From contig JBNJGY010000001.1 of assembly GCA_051748045.1 (NCBI GenBank), forward strand, positions 32,001-96,000: DNA of 64,000 bases, written 5' to 3'. Positions 56,026 through 62,890 of the stretch are shown piece after piece; positions within the stretch are counted from its first letter, which is position 1; the number at the start of each line of letters is the position of its first letter. Source of the DNA: Thermotogota bacterium (GTDB lineage Bacteria; Thermotogota; Thermotogae; Petrotogales; Petrotogaceae). The notes beneath the pieces are model-generated. The model did no database searches, was not told the origin of the DNA, and saw only the letters and a list, made by a program, of their open reading frames with translations. A program made the position numbers and the translations under genes.

Positions 56026-56048
56026 CAAGGGGTATTAAGCCCCTTGTT
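56024..56048. terminator. Terminator hairpin between the convergent aldolase and ABC genes
   Basis: AACAAGGGG-TATTAAG-CCCCTTGTT. Confidence 0.75.
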
Positions 56049-57825
56049 TTATAAATTTGAATTGAGATAAGTATAAATCGTAATAATCGTTTCTCATTTC
56101 AATTAGTTCTTCATGAGTTCCCATTTCGCTAATTTTTCCATCTTTAATATAAATAATTCTGTCTACATCTCTAATGGTTGATAGTCTATGTGCAATTACA
56201 AAACTAGTTCTATTTTTTAGTAGTTTTTCGATTCCTAATTGTACCAATCTTTCAGTTTTTGTATCAATATTTGATGTAGCCTCATCTAAAATTAATATTT
56301 TGGGATCAGCTAATAATGCTCTTGCTAAAGATATTAACTGTCTTTGCCCAACAGACAACCTTGAGCCTCTTTCGTTTACTTCAGTCTCATAACCTTTTTC
56401 TAAACTCATCACGAAATCATGTAATCCTACGGTTTTAGAAGCTTTTATTATTTCTTCTTTTGTGGCATCTAATTTGCCGTATTTAATATTTTCATAAATA
56501 GTTGTAGAAAATAAAAATGTATCTTGTAGCATAATTCCCATATGGGTTCTCAAATTTTCCAAATCTATATCTCTTAAATCGTGACCATCTAAGAATATAC
56601 TACCTTGTGTGGGGTCATAAAACCTGGATATCAAATTTACCATAGTAGTCTTTCCAGCTCCTGTAGGACCTACAAATGCTATAGATTCACCTGGTTTAAC
56701 CTTCAAATTTATATTTTTTAGAACTTGAGTATCTTTATCATAACTAAAGCTAACATTTCTAAAATCTAATTCTCCATCTATGTTGTCTAATCTTTGTACA
56801 CCATTTTTGTTGTTTTCAACAACAGGTTTTATATCTAATATTTCAAATATTCTATCTGTAGCTGCAAAACTGGTTATTAAAACATTATAAAAGTTTGCTA
56901 TGTTCCAAATAGGTCTCCAAAATTTTGTTATATACCAAGTAAAAGCGAATATTTCTCCTATTGTAATTAAATTTTGACCTACAAGTCCAAAACTATACCA
57001 ATATATGGCTATTAACCCCAAACCATAGGATAGTTCAATAAGAGGTCCAAATTTATATTGTAGTCTTGCTGCATGAATAAAGGAATCGACAGCATTACCA
57101 ACATAACCTCTAAAATTATTTTTTGTAAAACTCTCTGCTGTAAAAGATTGTACTACTTTTATACCTGAGAACGTTTCATGGGTATAGGCATTTAAATTAG
57201 ATCTCTTTTTTCTATAGTTCTCCCATCGTTTTCTCCCTATTATCTGTATTACAAAAAGTGCCAAAAAAAGTGGGGGCATAACCATCATTGTTATACCAGT
57301 TAGTTGTGCGTTCATTGAAACCATAATAATTACAACAGATATAACTGTAATCACTTCAGGAATTAAACTTGTAACTAAAGAGTTAAAAAATTGCTGTAAA
57401 GAGTTGATATCTCCCATAATCCTTGCTAAAATTTTTCCTACAGGTCTTTCATCAAAAAAATTGAAAGATAATTTTTGAATATGATTGTAAAGATCATGCC
57501 TTATGTTTACAACTATATCGTTACTAATCTCTCCCATTTTGATCATTCTCATTTTTGAGACCCACATAGCAAATAAATTAACCAGTAACATCCCTATACT
57601 CAACCAAACTAATCCTATAACATTTTCTTGGACTATATAATTATCTATTGCCAATTTCAACATAAAAGGATTTAAAAGTTCAACACCAATAACAAAAAGC
57701 ATCATCATGGATACCAAAAATGTTTTTAATTTATATGGTTTTAAATAAGATATCAATATTTTAATTATCTCAATATTTGATTTTCTCTTTGTATTTTCAT
57801 CTTGTTTTGTAGCGTTTAGACTCAT
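56035..57825 (-). CDS. Heterodimeric ABC exporter, half-transporter 2 (canonical Walker B, degenerate signature)
   Basis: TMD plus NBD with GPTGAGKT, LSVGQRQ, ILDEAT and AHR. Confidence 0.93.
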   Translation of the reverse strand: MSLNATKQDENTKRKSNIEIIKILISYLKPYKLKTFLVSMMMLFVIGVELLNPFMLKLAIDNYIVQENVIGLVWLSIGMLLVNLFAMWVSKMRMIKMGEISNDIVVNIRHDLYNHIQKLSFNFFDERPVGKILARIMGDINSLQQFFNSLVTSLIPEVITVISVVIIMVSMNAQLTGITMMVMPPLFLALFVIQIIGRKRWENYRKKRSNLNAYTHETFSGIKVVQSFTAESFTKNNFRGYVGNAVDSFIHAARLQYKFGPLIELSYGLGLIAIYWYSFGLVGQNLITIGEIFAFTWYITKFWRPIWNIANFYNVLITSFAATDRIFEILDIKPVVENNKNGVQRLDNIDGELDFRNVSFSYDKDTQVLKNINLKVKPGESIAFVGPTGAGKTTMVNLISRFYDPTQGSIFLDGHDLRDIDLENLRTHMGIMLQDTFLFSTTIYENIKYGKLDATKEEIIKASKTVGLHDFVMSLEKGYETEVNERGSRLSVGQRQLISLARALLADPKILILDEATSNIDTKTERLVQLGIEKLLKNRTSFVIAHRLSTIRDVDRIIYIKDGKISEMGTHEELIEMRNDYYDLYLSQFKFIKQGA

Positions 57826-57826
57826 A

Positions 57827-59563
57827 TTAGATCACCTCGTTTGCAAAAAAGCTAATATCTTCAAAATCTTTGAATTGATCTTTGTAAATTTTATAATATT
57901 CTCCTTTTTTGTCTACTAATTCATCATGTGTTCCCATTTCAAAAATTTCCCCATCTTTTAAATATATTATTTTATCTGCATTTTTAACTGCTGAAATTCT
58001 GTGTGCTATTATAAAAGTTGTTATATTTTTGTTGCTATCTTTAATATTTTTTAGTAGTTCATATTCTGTATCCATATCCAATGCACTTGTAGCATCATCC
58101 AAGACAATCATTCTCGATTTTTTGGCTAAGGCCCTTGCTATTGTCATTCTTTGTTTTTGACCACCAGATAACCCAACGCCTCTTTCTCCAATTAAAGTGT
58201 TGTATTTTTTATTCATTTTTTCTACAAACTCTTCCACACAGGAAATTTTTGCAACTTCTACTAATTCTTTTTGGCTTAATTCATTATTTCCCATCTTTAT
58301 ATTTTCCTCTACAGTTTCTGAGAAAAGAAAGCTGTCTTGAAAAATGTATGAAATATTATCTCTAAGGTTTTTTAAATTGATTGATCTTATATCATTTCCG
58401 TCAATTAATATATTCCCTTTTGTAACGTCATAAAATCTACCAATTAAATTAACTAATGATGTTTTACCTGAACCTGTTTCTCCCATTATGGCGACTGTTT
58501 CACCAGGGTTAATTTCTAAATTAATCTTTTTTAAAACATAATCTTCATCATATTTTAGGTAAACATCATGAAAAATAATTTTCCCTTTTTCTATTTTTTC
58601 ACCTAAGTCATTTAATATTTCTGGTTTATTCGACATTATTCTATCAATTTTTTTTGCTGATGTTGTTCCAAGAGATATCATATTTGTTAATAACCCCATC
58701 ATTCTCATTGGCCAAATCAACATCCATACGTATTGAGTAAAAGCTACTAAAACACCTAAAGATATTTGTTCATTAATGACAAAAGCCCCGCCAAAAACAA
58801 CTAACAAAACTATTGTCATATTACCCAGAAATTCCATCACCGAGAATAATGATCCAAATATTTTTGTCCTTTCTATGTTCAGTTCATAATTTTTTTTATT
58901 CATATCTAAAAATTTTAATGTTTCATGTTTTTCTCTTGCAAAAGCTTTCACCAATCTAACTCCAGCTATATTTTCTTGAGCTGTAGTATTTAACTTTGCA
59001 GCATGATCACTTATTTTATCGTAAACTTTAGATACTTTTTGTCTTAATTTCACTGCAACATAAGCTATTAAAGGCATTCCAGCCAGTGTTATCAAAGCTA
59101 ACTTCCAGTTTAATGAAAATAATATAAAAGAAGCCACAGAAAAATATATGATATTTTCAACAAAAACAGCTAATGCAAATCCGAGCATATCCCAAACATT
59201 TTCCGCATCTTGTCCTATTCTAGACATTAATTCTCCAGTATTTTGTTTGTCAAAGAATTTAAAATCCATCTTATGTATATGTTTAAACAAATCATTTCTA
59301 ATATCTCCTAAAATTTGAGTAGCTATATAGTCATAAGTAAATTCTTTAAAATATCCAGAAAAAACTCTAACTACTGTCATTATAGCTATACCTATTAACA
59401 CAGTTTTTAAAGATTCTACACTATTATTACCAAGAGCTTCATCTATAAACATTTTACTCAACATTGGCCAAAACATATCTGAAATGATAAAGGCCATCAT
59501 AGATAAAACAGCGACAAATAACAACAATTTATAATTTTTATAATATTTTAGTATTTTTAACAC
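57827..59563 (-). CDS. Heterodimeric ABC exporter, half-transporter 1 (canonical signature, Walker B E-to-D)
   Basis: TMD plus NBD with GETGSGKT, LSGGQKQ, IVLDDAT and AHR; GTG start with GGGGTG RBS 7 nt upstream. Confidence 0.93.
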   Translation of the reverse strand: MLKILKYYKNYKLLLFVAVLSMMAFIISDMFWPMLSKMFIDEALGNNSVESLKTVLIGIAIMTVVRVFSGYFKEFTYDYIATQILGDIRNDLFKHIHKMDFKFFDKQNTGELMSRIGQDAENVWDMLGFALAVFVENIIYFSVASFILFSLNWKLALITLAGMPLIAYVAVKLRQKVSKVYDKISDHAAKLNTTAQENIAGVRLVKAFAREKHETLKFLDMNKKNYELNIERTKIFGSLFSVMEFLGNMTIVLLVVFGGAFVINEQISLGVLVAFTQYVWMLIWPMRMMGLLTNMISLGTTSAKKIDRIMSNKPEILNDLGEKIEKGKIIFHDVYLKYDEDYVLKKINLEINPGETVAIMGETGSGKTSLVNLIGRFYDVTKGNILIDGNDIRSINLKNLRDNISYIFQDSFLFSETVEENIKMGNNELSQKELVEVAKISCVEEFVEKMNKKYNTLIGERGVGLSGGQKQRMTIARALAKKSRMIVLDDATSALDMDTEYELLKNIKDSNKNITTFIIAHRISAVKNADKIIYLKDGEIFEMGTHDELVDKKGEYYKIYKDQFKDFEDISFFANEVI

Positions 59564-59607
59564 TTTCCATCACCCCGATTTTTCTCTTCTATTTTTTATC
59601 CACCAAT

Positions 59608-59685
59608 CTATATTAAAGATATGATTTCGTAATACTCTTTTTTATTTTTTACCTTCATATTATTATTTTTTTGATTATTTTTCAT
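59608..59685 (-). CDS. Micro-ORF C, 25 aa: MKNNQKNNNMKVKNKKEYYEIISLI
   Basis: Manual translation; RBS GGGGTGG precedes ATG; C-terminus paralogous to micro-ORF B. Confidence 0.7.
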   Translation of the reverse strand: MKNNQKNNNMKVKNKKEYYEIISLI

Positions 59686-59725
59686 AATTACCACCCCATG
59701 TTTTAGCTTCGTCTGATAGTTTGGA

Positions 59726-59806
59726 TTAAATTAAAGAAACAACTTCAAAATATGATTTTTTCTCTTCTTGTTTAGCTTGATTGTTTTGTATGTTTTTCTT
59801 TTTCAT
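59726..59806 (-). CDS. Micro-ORF B, 26 aa: MKKKNIQNNQAKQEEKKSYFEVVSLI
   Basis: Manual translation; RBS AAAGGGGGTGA precedes ATG; C-terminus paralogous to micro-ORF C. Confidence 0.72.
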   Translation of the reverse strand: MKKKNIQNNQAKQEEKKSYFEVVSLI

Positions 59807-59832
59807 GATTTCACCCCCTTTGTGACATAATT

Positions 59833-59868
59833 CTAACTAACAAAACTCATCTCTAATTTTTTTGACAT
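59833..59868 (-). CDS. Micro-ORF A, 11 aa: MSKKLEMSFVS
   Basis: Manual translation; RBS GGAGGTG 7 nt upstream; first ORF after terminator 2. Confidence 0.55.
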   Translation of the reverse strand: MSKKLEMSFVS

Positions 59869-59888
59869 TTTATTACACCTCCAATTTA

Positions 59889-59922
59889 TAAAAATAAAGC
59901 CATGGCTTTATTAGCCATGGCT
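59889..59922 (-). terminator. Leader terminator 2
   Basis: Minus strand AGCCATGGCT-AATAA-AGCCATGGCT-TTATTTTT (arms at 59913-59922 and 59898-59907). Confidence 0.75.
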
Positions 59923-59993
59923 GATTTAGTTTGTTTTATCATTCGATACTATTATCCTACCTTTATAAAACATAGAAAATAATAATAATCTAT

Positions 59994-60025
59994 AAAACAA
60001 AAGCCATGGCTGGATAGCCATGGCT
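59994..60025 (-). terminator. Leader terminator 1
   Basis: Minus strand AGCCATGGCT-ATCC-AGCCATGGCT-TTTGTTTT (arms at 60016-60025 and 60002-60011). Confidence 0.78.
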
Positions 60026-60042
60026 CGAATATATAGAAATAA

Positions 60043-60159
60043 CTAGATTATTTCTTTTCTACTTCGAGGCAAAGCTATCCCATGATTTGATTTTAATATA
60101 CCGCACATATTAAAACTAACTCTTAATTTGCCGGTGTTTACAACTGCTAAATTAATCAT
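60043..60159 (-). CDS. Leader peptide, 38 aa: MINLAVVNTGKLRVSFNMCGILKSNHGIALPRSRKEII
   Basis: Manual translation; AAAGGAGG RBS 8 nt upstream; the 3' end is complementary to terminator 1. Confidence 0.72.
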   Translation of the reverse strand: MINLAVVNTGKLRVSFNMCGILKSNHGIALPRSRKEII

Positions 60160-60219
60160 GATATTGCCTCCTTTTTTAAAATATTTTATCACTTACAATT
60201 TACACTGTTTATATTTCTT

Positions 60220-60258
60220 GTTTTATACGTTATAGTTACTATAGAGTAAAGTATAACG
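60220..60258 (-). promoter_or_regulatory. Candidate MerR-type promoter/operator for the leader-ABC transcript
   Basis: Minus strand TTTACT (60250-60245), then dyad TATAGT-N-ACTATA (60231-60243) in the spacer, then TAAAAC at 19 bp (or TATAAA at 17 bp). Confidence 0.5.
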
Positions 60259-60274
60259 GATAATTTTTATCTAT

Positions 60275-61009
60275 TTAAACTTCATTGTAATATTCGAAAT
60301 ATTTTATTTCTAAATCAAAGTTATTTTTAATATAATCTCCAAGTTTTTTAATTCCAAAAGTTTCTGTTGCATAATGCCCAGCATGGATAAAGTTCACACC
60401 CATATCTTTTGCTATATCTCTAGTATGTTCTTCTACAGACCCTGTTATATAAGTATCTATTTCTGGGTCTAATTTTTCAATGAAATTAGCCCCTCCTCCT
60501 GAAACAATTGCTATATTTTCGGCGTATTCTCTATTTTGATAGCATAATAAGCTTTGGTTTTTTTGCAATATTTCTTTTAAGTTTTTTGTTAATTTTTGAA
60601 ATGGAACTTTTTTAGGCATTCTACCTTTAAAACCAAATGAAAATTTATCTACTATTTCTATACCTAGTTTCCTCAATAATTCTGAGTTATTTCCATATTC
60701 CAAACTCGCATCTAATGGCAAATGATATCCCATTAAAGATATATCATTTTTTATGAGGTTTTCAATTCTTATTTTTTTATAACCAGTTATATCTATTACA
60801 CCTTTTCCAAAAAGACCATGATGAACCAATATAACGTCTGGATTCCACTCTTTTATTTTTTCAAAAAAAGTGTTATTATAAGATACTCCTAAAGCAATCT
60901 TTTTTATTTCATGTTTTCCTTCTACCTGAATACCATTTTTACAAAAATCCTCAAAATCTTCTACATTTAATATTTCATTTAAATGTGATTCTAATTGAAA
61001 TAAATTCAC
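60275..61009 (-). CDS. Nif3-like dinuclear metal center hexameric protein (YbgI/DUF34)
   Basis: DFCKNGIQVEG, LVHHG, YHLPLD, GNN, VSGGG and AGHYATE motifs. Confidence 0.93.
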   Translation of the reverse strand: MNLFQLESHLNEILNVEDFEDFCKNGIQVEGKHEIKKIALGVSYNNTFFEKIKEWNPDVILVHHGLFGKGVIDITGYKKIRIENLIKNDISLMGYHLPLDASLEYGNNSELLRKLGIEIVDKFSFGFKGRMPKKVPFQKLTKNLKEILQKNQSLLCYQNREYAENIAIVSGGGANFIEKLDPEIDTYITGSVEEHTRDIAKDMGVNFIHAGHYATETFGIKKLGDYIKNNFDLEIKYFEYYNEV

Positions 61010-61660: not shown

Positions 61661-62890
61661 ATGAAGATAGGTAAGTTTGCAAAAAAAAATAATTTAACTG
61701 TTGACACTATAAGATATTATGTAGAACTAGGACTTCTATTACCTGAAAAGGTTAATAATCAATTTTCTTTTGATGAGAAATGCCAAAATGATTTAGAAGA
61801 AATAATCAATTTAAAAAATATGAGGTTTTCAATTTCTCAAATTCAAAGTATTTTTTCAACAAGAAGATTTACTAAATTAATAAATGATGAGGAACTAAAT
61901 TATTATATATCTTTTTTTGAAAATAAAAAAAATGAACTTATAAAAGAAAAAAAAGAAATCGATAAATCAATTGATAAAATTGACAAAAAGATTGAAGATA
62001 TTAAAAATAGTTATGAAAAAAGAAACGTAGATTTGGGTATTCCTGTTTCTTTTTTAAGTAATTTATCTTGTCCTAAATGTAATAAATCTTTGAATTTAGT
62101 TAAAGGAAATATAGAAAATAATCAAATTTTTAATGGAGAACTCAAATGTAAGTGCGGATATGAAGCAAAAATTGAAGATGGAATTTTAATCACAGAGAAC
62201 GCAGAAACATATATGCCTGAAAACTTAGAAAAAGATAACCCAGGAAATATTTTTGTCAAAAAAACTAATATGTCTTTTGCGAATTTAATATATAAAGGTA
62301 TGTCTTGGATTTATAAAAGATTAAACCAAATAGATTTAAAAAATATAAATATTCTAGAAATTGGAACTGGTTCAGGTTTTTTCTTAAAAAAATTGATTGA
62401 GTCATTAGATGATACTTCTGTTTACATAGCAGTTGATAACAACCTAGAGTTTTTAAAATCTGCAAAAAAGTATTTACAAGCTATCGGTAAAGAAGCCAAC
62501 ATAGTGTTCATAGCTTGTGACTTTAAAGAAATCCCTTTACAAAATGATACTTGTGATATTTTACTAGATGTATATGGGACAGCTGACGACTCTTTGAATA
62601 AAGATTTTTACCCTATAAGAGATACTAAACACCTTTTAAAAAACAAAGGCTTTTGGTATGGAACATATATACATTTCAATGACAATTCAAAAACCTTGAC
62701 TACAATAAGCAGAGAAGCTAGAGAAAAATATAAGTCAGATTTCATAAGAAAATCTTTCGCAAGCAATGGATTTGAAGAAATAGAATCTAGTTTTTTAGGG
62801 AAAGCTACAAAATATGGAGAATCAGAGCCTTTTATTGTTGATGGAGACATAGTTAATCATTGGGGATTTGTTTGTAGAAAATATATATAA
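61661..62890 (+). CDS. MerR-family regulator fused to a Cys4 zinc ribbon and a class I SAM-methyltransferase-like domain
   Basis: MKIGKFAK...DTIRYYVELGLL HTH, coiled coil, CPKC...CKC and ILEIGTGSG. Confidence 0.85.
   Translation: MKIGKFAKKNNLTVDTIRYYVELGLLLPEKVNNQFSFDEKCQNDLEEIINLKNMRFSISQIQSIFSTRRFTKLINDEELNYYISFFENKKNELIKEKKEIDKSIDKIDKKIEDIKNSYEKRNVDLGIPVSFLSNLSCPKCNKSLNLVKGNIENNQIFNGELKCKCGYEAKIEDGILITENAETYMPENLEKDNPGNIFVKKTNMSFANLIYKGMSWIYKRLNQIDLKNINILEIGTGSGFFLKKLIESLDDTSVYIAVDNNLEFLKSAKKYLQAIGKEANIVFIACDFKEIPLQNDTCDILLDVYGTADDSLNKDFYPIRDTKHLLKNKGFWYGTYIHFNDNSKTLTTISREAREKYKSDFIRKSFASNGFEEIESSFLGKATKYGESEPFIVDGDIVNHWGFVCRKYI

Follow-up and report, generated by a model that had tools for sequence, protein, structure and literature searches.

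The 64,000-nucleotide stretch of Thermotogota DNA analysed here (assembly GCA_051748045.1, contig JBNJGY010000001.1, positions 32,001 to 96,000; hereafter the window) carries on its minus strand a 38-codon open reading frame (ORF) preceded by a Shine-Dalgarno (SD) sequence, followed by two terminators, three small ORFs and two genes for a heterodimeric ABC exporter. The best explanation of this arrangement, to which we give a probability of about 0.7, is a ribosome-dependent (leader-peptide) transcription attenuator that controls the three small ORFs and the exporter. The RNA segments of the leader, their complementarity, conservation and covariation, and the geometry of the ORF were computed; from these we infer that the switch depends on translation, that its antiterminator is trapped kinetically, that one of its helices serves as a relay between the two terminators, and that the inducing signal is likely impaired translation, caused for example by ribosome-targeting antibiotics. 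All coordinates are positions in the window, the locus is read on the minus strand, and the window's own genome is called G000.

Six segments of the leader RNA make up the proposed switch. Segment 1 (GGAGGCAAUAUCAUGAUU, 60154..60171) comprises the leader's SD, spacer and start codon, and would form the 5' strand of an anti-antiterminator. Segment 2 is a conserved "box" (AAUCAUGGGAUAGCUUUGCCUCGAAG, 60062..60087) with two alternative partners, segment 1 and segment 3. The latter (GCCAUGGCUAUCC, 60012..60029) consists of UUCGAG together with the 5' arm and loop of the first terminator, T1, and is the 3' strand of the antiterminator, while segment 4 (60011-60001) is the T1 3' arm. Segment 5 (59913..59939) joins AUAAAACAAA (59939-59930) to the 5' arm of the second terminator, T2 (AGCCAUGGCU), and is complementary to the T1 3' arm and U tract; segment 6 is the T2 3' arm.

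In the OFF register, segment 1 would pair with segment 2 (SD and start with the box), segment 3 with segment 4 (T1), and segment 5 with segment 6 (T2); the ON register would consist of segment 2 with segment 3 (the antiterminator) and of segment 4 with segment 5 (the T1 3' arm with the T2 5' arm). If no ribosome loads, segment 1 would take the box and T1 would form. If the leader is translated smoothly, the ribosome would run over the box to the stop codon within the antiterminator, T1 would form, and T2 would stop whatever leaks through. If a ribosome stays on the start codon or close to it, or ribosomes are queued back to it, segment 1 would be covered and the box left free to pair with the T1 5' arm and loop as they emerge. 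The orphaned T1 3' arm would then take the T2 5' arm, neither terminator would form, and RNA polymerase would enter the operon.

This kind of control is known, and its form with two coupled terminators is most likely undescribed and widely conserved. Neither a tandem-terminator attenuator nor a clostridial ABC-exporter leader of such a design was found in a literature search by titles and abstracts, mostly without subscription journals. A broader reading, which we hold tentatively and at somewhat less than even odds, takes the six segments as a "domino" attenuator that works through the relay and as an unannotated, portable translation-stress RNA family shared by Clostridiaceae and Petrotogaceae, which would drive the ABC exporter and, in a number of genomes, nothing but small Lys-rich proteins.

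The antiterminator and the first terminator

The leader ORF (MINLAVVNTGKLRVSFNMCGILKSNHGIALPRSRKEII, 38 codons and TAG, 60043..60159) has its SD, GGAGG, at 60171-60167, a 7-nucleotide spacer, its ATG at 60159-60157 and its TAG at 60045-60043. The first-pass annotation of the window, made from the sequence, had drawn three nested helices around the end of this ORF. They are borne out in full: all 21 of 21 pairs are Watson-Crick (60080-60074 with 60018-60012, 60068-60063 with 60029-60024, 60055-60048 with 60042-60035), and the structure as drawn amounts to -22.4 kcal/mol. In the apical hairpin (AGAAAUAA / UUAUUUCU, 60035..60055, from RNA folding) the 5-nucleotide loop UCUAG (60047-60043) does contain the TAG. 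T1 itself (59992..60026) has the stem GAGCCAUGGCU / AGCCAUGGCUU, the loop AUCC and the U-tract tail UUUUGUUUUAU; it came from a terminator scan that returned three terminator-like sites where 0.1 would be expected. The antiterminator overlaps T1 (60026-60001 and the U tract) with its 3' strand, in keeping with the proposal that it sequesters the T1 5' arm and loop.

For transcripts with 3' ends from 60012 to 59992, the minimum free energy (MFE) structure given by RNAfold is this antiterminator with a few extra pairs, at -26.7 to -31.1 kcal/mol, and none of 200 dinucleotide shuffles of the region is as stable (z = -4.76). Over 60090-59985 the antiterminator reaches -31.1 kcal/mol and the T1-containing fold -32.7 kcal/mol; with a gap of 1.6 kcal/mol, the antiterminator is by no means far less stable than T1.

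The same arrangement is found in related loci. The leader with its box and terminators, here called a cassette, was compared in 38 cases, 10 of them in five genera of Petrotogaceae (the family of the window) and 28 in Clostridiaceae. When the nascent RNA is folded as far as the T1 loop, all 38 give as their MFE structure an antiterminator with the leader stop inside it, and in all 38 T1 lies downstream of that stop, by 16 nucleotides in the window; the stop codon is within the hairpin loop itself in 20 of the 38. The sequence of the hairpin varies and the arrangement recurs, so a stop in the apical loop is a recurrent trait and not a quirk of G000. As judged from the sequences, the ORF would thus be a leader whose last codons form the 5' strand of the antiterminator and compete with T1, as had been suggested; a ribosome that reached the stop would cover this strand, an idea that the comparison across cassettes supports. 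One locus with a spurious-looking leader (L210) was left out of the stop-enclosure counts, as well as out of the permutation tests and the blocked-segment folding described below, and another with a mis-assigned T1 (L206) out of the counts over 33 folded cassettes.

The antiterminator helix also shows covariation. In a MAFFT alignment of the 10 Petrotogaceae-type cassettes, 86.8% of its cells are paired and four pairs show double changes, against 27-43% of cells paired in slid controls; examples are changes from G-C to U-A and from G-C to A-U between the GGGAUAGC:GCUAUCC and GUGAUAACC:GGUUAUCAC types. The clostridial outer helix (AUAGCCC:GGGCUAU, 19 cassettes) has 85.0% of its cells paired and 4 of 8 pairs double-changed. 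Over all helices examined for covariation the slid controls range from 18 to 53%; the sequences are related and the lineages few, and the figures speak for consistency rather than proof. When the box is paired with the T1 region of its own locus the duplex averages -16.27 kcal/mol, against -12.23 kcal/mol with the T1 regions of other loci, a difference matched in none of 10,000 permutations (36 non-redundant cassettes, near-identical loci having been collapsed before this and the other permutation tests). An antiterminator that competes with T1 therefore exists here beyond chance.

Pairing of the leader start region with the box

The other partner of the box is the ribosome-binding site of the leader itself. 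In the window, GGAGGCAAUAUCAUGAUU forms with AAUCAUGG...UUGCCUC a helix of -18.2 kcal/mol (SD and start region 60171-60154 against box 60087-60062), a duplex within the best 0.15% of 3992 background 30-mers; over the 10 Petrotogaceae-type cassettes, the box as a partner of segment 1 ranks within the best 0.15-1.3% of all 30-mers of its locus. The corresponding helices are AGGUUAUCAC-AUG with GUGAUAACCU in the genus labelled g9 and GAGGUAAAG with CUUUACCUC in genome G006, and the variable Y-U-R positions of the box track the SD spacer. When the transcript is folded as far as the box, all 10 Petrotogaceae-type cassettes close this helix in their MFE structure. Segment 1 binds its own box at -18.10 kcal/mol and the boxes of other loci at -13.72 kcal/mol, which none of 10,000 permutations equalled (36 non-redundant cassettes from both phyla).

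This pairing changes what is to be expected of an untranslated leader. The window transcript through T1 folds, without a ribosome, into the anti-antiterminator and T1 with P(T1) = 1.00, and the same two structures are obtained with segment 1 free in 33 of 33 cassettes. It had been claimed that a lack of translation would lead to read-through; since the SD and start region pairs with the box in all 10 Petrotogaceae-type cassettes, no translation should instead give termination, and the claim finds no support. A ribosome footprint on codons 1-2 of the window leader gives P(antiterminator) = 0.95, and from codon 4 on T1 is back. The further claim that any stall before about codon 24 would open the operon fails in this equilibrium model, in which only codons 1-2 serve, and holds only if the SD and start region stays occupied; in the model, a stall further in would require queued or initiating ribosomes that cover the SD. 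The window folds are still minima at 50-70 °C.

The leader as a reading frame

The box is not read as one peptide. Leaders in G000, in its congener G002 and in both copies of genome G003 read it as HGIALPRS, those of G006 and G009 as SWDS(F/S)(T/A)SK, and their clostridial relatives as SPIS or ALSL. Because the frame differs between genomes, the box would seem to be an RNA element that is to be translated through, not a conserved peptide. We also considered HGIALPRS as a peptide under conservation, with the Y-U-R pattern as silent Leu changes, and rejected it, because two genera use another frame and these positions covary with the SD spacer. In all 38 cassettes an SD-preceded ORF runs from segment 1 to a point between the box and T1; over the leader span, none of the 38 has an open +1 or +2 frame. 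The sequence comparison thus presents the box as an RNA element and the ORF as a "ruler".

A box conserved as RNA and not as peptide would also suit a switch that does not depend on translation, in which the box is bound by a protein, a small RNA or a ligand, or is melted by temperature, and the ORF is incidental; the SD-box helix would gate translation of the leader in that case too. We consider such a switch quite unlikely, as the ORF from segment 1 to the antiterminator is kept in 38 cassettes of two phyla with the other frames closed in every one, and no regulator gene accompanies the cassette in the loci read. There is also no Rfam riboswitch or protein-binding leader that matches: the best Rfam matches over 59300-60400 of the window are far under the gathering score, and eight related loci gave none.

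The peptides themselves are highly diverse over the 38 listed; the leader peptide of the window gave no Pfam match. The earlier remark that the leader has no run of one amino acid extends to all 38 of them. This bears on a classical amino-acid attenuator, where stalling at the codons of a scarce amino acid would induce the operon. In its favour, the six-segment logic found here resembles that of the his and trp leaders; however, with no run or shared cluster of one codon in 38 diverse peptides, and with exporters and small proteins in place of biosynthetic genes under control, it is very unlikely here. In many leaders a basic residue is followed by Phe or Tyr near positions 5-8 (read by eye), and this may be a stalling motif.

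The second terminator and a possible relay helix

Downstream of T1, after a spacer of 78 nucleotides, the terminator scan found T2 (59888..59922, with its hairpin at 59922-59898), in which AGCCAUGGCU, the loop AAUAA and again AGCCAUGGCU are followed by the tail UUUAUUUUUAU. T2 is present in 34 of 39 cassettes, in both phyla. Within a genome T1 and T2 share their stem sequence, and T2 keeps the stem of T1 in four of five genera: the shared stem is GCCAUGGCU in g1, G(G)UCGUGG in g2, CCGUGAC in g8 and GGCUAUGG(U) in g9, and is reduced to GGGC in g5. Of the six copies of the 10-mer AGCCATGGCT in the whole 2.4-Mb genome, four are at this locus. As the arms of T1 and T2 match, the T1 3' arm is complementary to the T2 5' arm, and in the window the resulting relay helix continues over the T1 U tract to take in AUAAAACAAA (59939-59930). 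Conservation of AUAAAACAAA and of GAUAAAACAA stands out in a T1-T2 spacer that has otherwise diverged between G000 and G002.

All three helices show compensatory changes: in the 10 cassettes the T1 stem has 94.5% of its cells paired and 8 of 11 pairs compensatory (slid controls 24-48%); the T2 stem has 96.1% and 9 of 11, and the relay helix comes close to it with 88.2% and 8 of 11. Segments 4 and 5 bind at -12.40 kcal/mol within their own locus and at -8.51 kcal/mol between loci, with 0 of 10,000 permutations reaching this (27 non-redundant cassettes). In the transcript up to just 5' of the T2 3' arm, the antiterminator together with the relay is the MFE structure in eight of nine Petrotogaceae-type cassettes; with segment 1 blocked, the same pair of structures forms before the T2 3' arm in 29 of the 33 cassettes that have T2.

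The competition between antiterminator and T1, as first proposed, stands. What that model left out is T2, which needs an escape route of its own, and the relay helix offers one: because the T1 3' arm pairs with the T2 5' arm, a single antiterminator could disarm both terminators. The sequences suggest this function for the relay helix.

Weighing the proposed attenuator and its relay

Several observations weigh against the attenuator as set out here, or against the relay as part of it. Five of 39 cassettes have no T2, and the relay fold is not the minimum in G009 and in three clostridial cassettes. The likeness of T1 and T2 could come from duplication or gene conversion instead of selection for a relay; G041 and G015 have a T1 and a T2 with similar loops as well. 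The core of the stem (CCAUGG-like) is partly common to all lineages, so that independent changes are few, and relatedness inflates the shuffle statistics. As to the ribosome, the equilibrium model gives the window antiterminator only with a ribosome at codons 1-2, and in the exporter cassette of G003 and in G020 the antiterminator is not favoured at any of the ribosome positions listed. Even when segment 1 is blocked, a complete T1 remains part of the MFE structure in 27 of 33 cassettes, and only six, the window included, show the antiterminator alone. Fold energies were computed at 37 °C except for the check at 50-70 °C, and the lineage may be thermophilic. Finally, contigs from three public metatranscriptome runs cover 59330-59832, which takes in small ORFs b and c with the beginning of the first ABC gene, as well as 59600-59690 and 60183-60393; the leader, T1 and T2 lie outside all of them. 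Since such contigs show neither ends nor levels, they speak neither for nor against termination. Contigs end at 59832, one base beyond the small ORF a stop codon, and at 60183, the site of the predicted -10 element; contig ends prove nothing.

It is worth pointing out that, because T1 wins at equilibrium in most cassettes, the switch would have to rely on kinetic trapping of the antiterminator. Equilibrium folding with a ribosome footprint was set aside as a full model of the switch for the same reason, namely that T1 wins in most cassettes once it is complete.

The absence of T2 from five cassettes means that one terminator can suffice, and together with the real competition between antiterminator and T1 it is what speaks for the simpler two-state model of the first-pass annotation. 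There, only the antiterminator and T1 take part, T2 is an independent back-up, the antiterminator is melted by a ribosome at the stop, and read-through follows from a stall before about codon 24 or from no translation at all. We regard that model as unlikely: the pairing of segment 1 with the box is present in all 10 Petrotogaceae-type cassettes and is lineage-specific over the 36 non-redundant ones, the ribosome-free fold is the anti-antiterminator with T1 in 33 of 33, and an unregulated T2 would cap induction, yet T2 keeps the stem of T1 in most genera.

Distribution in Petrotogaceae and Clostridiaceae

At the level of DNA the leader is hardly conserved; it is found at full length in only one of 40 relatives, G002, at 87% identity. 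Between these two genomes, 60087-59992 differs at two bases, and the 5' half of the leader and the T1-T2 spacer have diverged. Of 25 other Petrotogaceae genomes, 12 have an orthologue of the first ABC protein (identity of 50% or more), and where the contig reaches far enough the order is the same: SD and ATG of the leader, box, T1, T2, small ORFs, ABC pair. The box of the family is CATGGGATAGCTYTRCCTCGAAG, and in genus g9 GTGATAACCTYGCTCA. Its core pattern has six sites in five of 26 family genomes, all of them at cassettes, and none in the reversed control; the sixth belongs to the second cassette of G003 described below. The assignment of the family to Petrotogaceae agrees with a protein at the G020 locus that is identical to an entry named for Marinitoga aeolica. 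A covariance model, run with the stricter filters of Infernal, matched 13 of 151 genomes of the class, namely G000 and 12 of 25 other members of its family, and none of 125 genomes in ten other families.

The cassette is also found in Clostridiaceae, the family that includes Inconstantimicrobium porci. The exporter has an orthologue in 76 of 146 scored genomes of this family, and of 32 clostridial loci inspected, a script detected leader, box and T1 in 29, the spurious-looking L210 among them; of the three that it missed, L202 and L208 carry the elements by eye and L200 does not. The clostridial form has the SD AAAGGAGGUAGGA, the box AGCCCUAUCUCU, a T1 of the type GGUCAUGGGCUAU... and usually a T2 with a similar stem. 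A clostridial covariance model matched 47 of 150 sampled genomes, mostly at one site each, directly upstream of the exporter. On the broader reading given above, the two families would share the cassette, probably through horizontal transfer. A scan of a metagenome collection for the box pattern, which is too short for that purpose, returned at least 118 stretches, and among the matches listed one was a true cassette, a truncated copy of the GNAT-linked one of G003 described below.

The distribution leaves little room for the view that there is no regulation at all, with T1 and T2 a plain double terminator of the upstream NIF3-like gene and with the ORF and the complementary blocks fortuitous. 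It is true that the terminators lie 3' of a convergently unencumbered gene. However, genes farther upstream vary from locus to locus and the cassette stays with the ABC operon behind them, the alternative helices are backed by covariation, and in nearly all 47 genomes the covariance-model matches adjoin the exporter orthologue on its upstream side. This view is already contradicted by the comparative data and is extremely unlikely.

Downstream genes and neighbours of the leader

The attenuator would control, in the window, two half-transporter genes (578 and 596 amino acids, 56035..59563) that make up a heterodimeric ABC exporter. Both proteins have PF00664 (ABC_membrane) and PF00005 (ABC_tran), that is, a type IV exporter membrane domain and a nucleotide-binding domain. 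Their best bacterial relatives of solved structure are TM287/TM288, TmrAB and BmrC/BmrD (YheI/YheH); YheI and YheH match at E = 5e-87 and 6e-96, and TM287/TM288 score better. No cut-off of an NCBIfam equivalog model was reached by either protein, so that the pair is at most a candidate orthologue of BmrCD.

Between T2 and the exporter are three small ORFs. ORF a (59833..59868, 11 codons, MSKKLEMSFVS) has an SD, GGAGGUG, immediately 3' of T2, and ORFs b (59726..59806, 26 amino acids, ending in KKSYFEVVSLI) and c (59608..59685, 25 amino acids, ending in KKEYYEIISLI) have strong SDs. ORF a is kept in G002, and ORFs of 11-12 codons stand at the matching place in three g9 genomes; ORF b differs from its G002 counterpart by one amino acid and three further silent changes. 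Every Petrotogaceae-type exporter cassette has one to six such SD-preceded ORFs (8-41 amino acids) in the interval from T2 to the ABC gene (window 59608-59868, minus strand, and loci L028, L029, L030, L032, L034, L265 and L267). They have Lys/Asn-rich N-termini and C-termini such as KSYFEVVSLI, KEYYEIISLI and SYYEGF..LKD(I/L)L(I/L)ELKR. Pfam gave no match for ORFs b and c, and of eight small proteins from related loci six had none and two had matches only below the cut-offs (E 0.008-0.07); a homology search with the 40-residue small protein of G020 gave only two clusters, both named hypothetical protein.

What follows the cassette is in most cases one orthologous heterodimeric ABC exporter, and now and then other genes or small proteins. 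Seven clostridial model matches without a matched exporter were read: one was an exporter locus, one a false positive and five were others. The L250 cassette precedes two SD-preceded small ORFs of 61 and 59 amino acids, those of L251-L253 precede only small ORFs of 31 and about 50 amino acids, and that of L255 precedes a 103-residue ORF. Since the downstream genes vary, the cassette is portable, and the switch may have small proteins as a second output that is independent of the exporter. The C-termini of small proteins at L250-L253 (LYYHLVLKKYL, LYYLLTLNKHI, LEYFTNLIYSVLKK) loosely recall those of the small ORFs in the window.

In G003 a second full cassette with leader, T1 and T2 (L056 / L219, contig 22) precedes a gene for a 1041-residue protein, which has an N-terminal GNAT domain and some 900 further residues without a Pfam match above the cut-off; no small ORFs lie between T2 and this gene. 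At L264 (G010, contig 11) a leader and T1 stand without T2 or a downstream gene and are followed by an apparent tRNA gene on the other strand (by eye); this orphan looks like what was left when the operon was lost.

On the 5' side, a consensus scan predicts a promoter-like site at 60183..60211 (TAAACA, 17 nucleotides, TAAAAT with an upstream TG, i.e., an extended -10), which is also kept in G002. The first gene 5' of the leader belongs to the NIF3 family by profile search (60275-61009, minus strand). Farther away, about 1.5 kb from the leader and divergent from it, a gene at 61661-62890 (plus strand) encodes a 409-residue protein in which a MerR-type helix-turn-helix is fused to a class I methyltransferase.

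Relation to known attenuators

The leaders of the his and trp operons of enterobacteria are comparable in design. They are chains of alternative hairpins (in his, A:B, C:D and E:F against B:C and D:E), and the position of the ribosome on the first segment decides between them; without translation they terminate, and they have one terminator and a run of regulatory codons. The leader in the window resembles them in its alternating-hairpin chain, the register of which would be set by a ribosome on the first segment. It differs in that two of its three OFF hairpins are terminators, that segment 1 is a ribosome-binding site, and that there is no codon run. Antibiotic-responsive leaders, such as that of ermC, sense a stalled ribosome by way of a uORF (upstream open reading frame).

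The closest published counterparts are in Bacillus subtilis. The bmrB leader of bmrCD and the vmlR leader have an anti-antiterminator, an antiterminator and a terminator and respond to ribosome-stalling antibiotics (PMC4191407, PMC13689557); in the bmrB model, transcription terminates when translation is smooth and reads through when ribosomes are slowed, and the antiterminator is assumed to form first and persist (PMC4191407). Both bmrCD and vmlR are drawn in PMC13689557 with termination in the absence of translation. The analogy to bmrB in the first-pass annotation was sound in its logic, which fits the model published in PMC4191407; what its version lacked were the anti-antiterminator and T2.

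The likeness to bmrB, as described in that paper, lies in a short SD-preceded ORF upstream of a heterodimeric ABC exporter pair and in a predicted set of anti-antiterminator, antiterminator and intrinsic terminator. The exporters are detectably related to BmrC/BmrD, and the likeness of the leaders is one of architecture. Four differences stand out against bmrB as published. The bmrB terminator lies inside the coding region, whereas here the stop is within the antiterminator, 16 nucleotides before T1; the 5' strand of the anti-antiterminator is here the leader's own SD and start; there are two stem-matched terminators with a possible relay; and the hosts are Thermotogota and Clostridiaceae instead of B. 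subtilis.

The vmlR and tlrB leaders are described in PMC13689557 as sensing stalled ribosomes in a uORF-dependent manner with SD-sequestering hairpins in the switch. Sensing of a stall in a uORF together with an SD-sequestering hairpin is what the leader in the window would have in common with vmlR, tlrB and ermC. In those systems it is the SD of the resistance gene that is hidden, or NusG-dependent pauses take part, whereas here the leader hides its own SD, and the output is purely transcriptional as far as the sequence goes.

There is also a counterpart to the small ORFs. According to PMC10351889, bmrX is a cryptic ORF of 26 residues, situated between bmrB and bmrC and cleaved by Rae1. The small ORFs of the window (11, 26 and 25 codons) likewise lie between the attenuator and the first ABC gene; unlike the single bmrX of that account, there are one to six of them, with strong SDs. 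As targets of Rae1 they were considered and rejected, because the genome has no NYN_YacP gene: the Rae1/YacP NYN family (PF05991) had no match in the 99.65%-complete G000, and the control matched in B. subtilis and Synechococcus. No EKIEGG-like context is found in these small ORFs.

Implications

Ribosome-sensing leaders switch on intrinsic genes for drug efflux and ribosome protection in several Gram-positive bacteria. The cassette described here suggests that this logic is kept far outside Bacillus, in a family of Thermotogota and in Clostridiaceae, in an RNA that no Rfam family matches. The sequence supports no claim on resistance to any particular drug. Where the cassette precedes only small basic proteins, it suggests when these unannotated proteins might be expressed. 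If the relay holds true, two terminators that share a stem and are opened by one antiterminator would allow low leak and high induction together.

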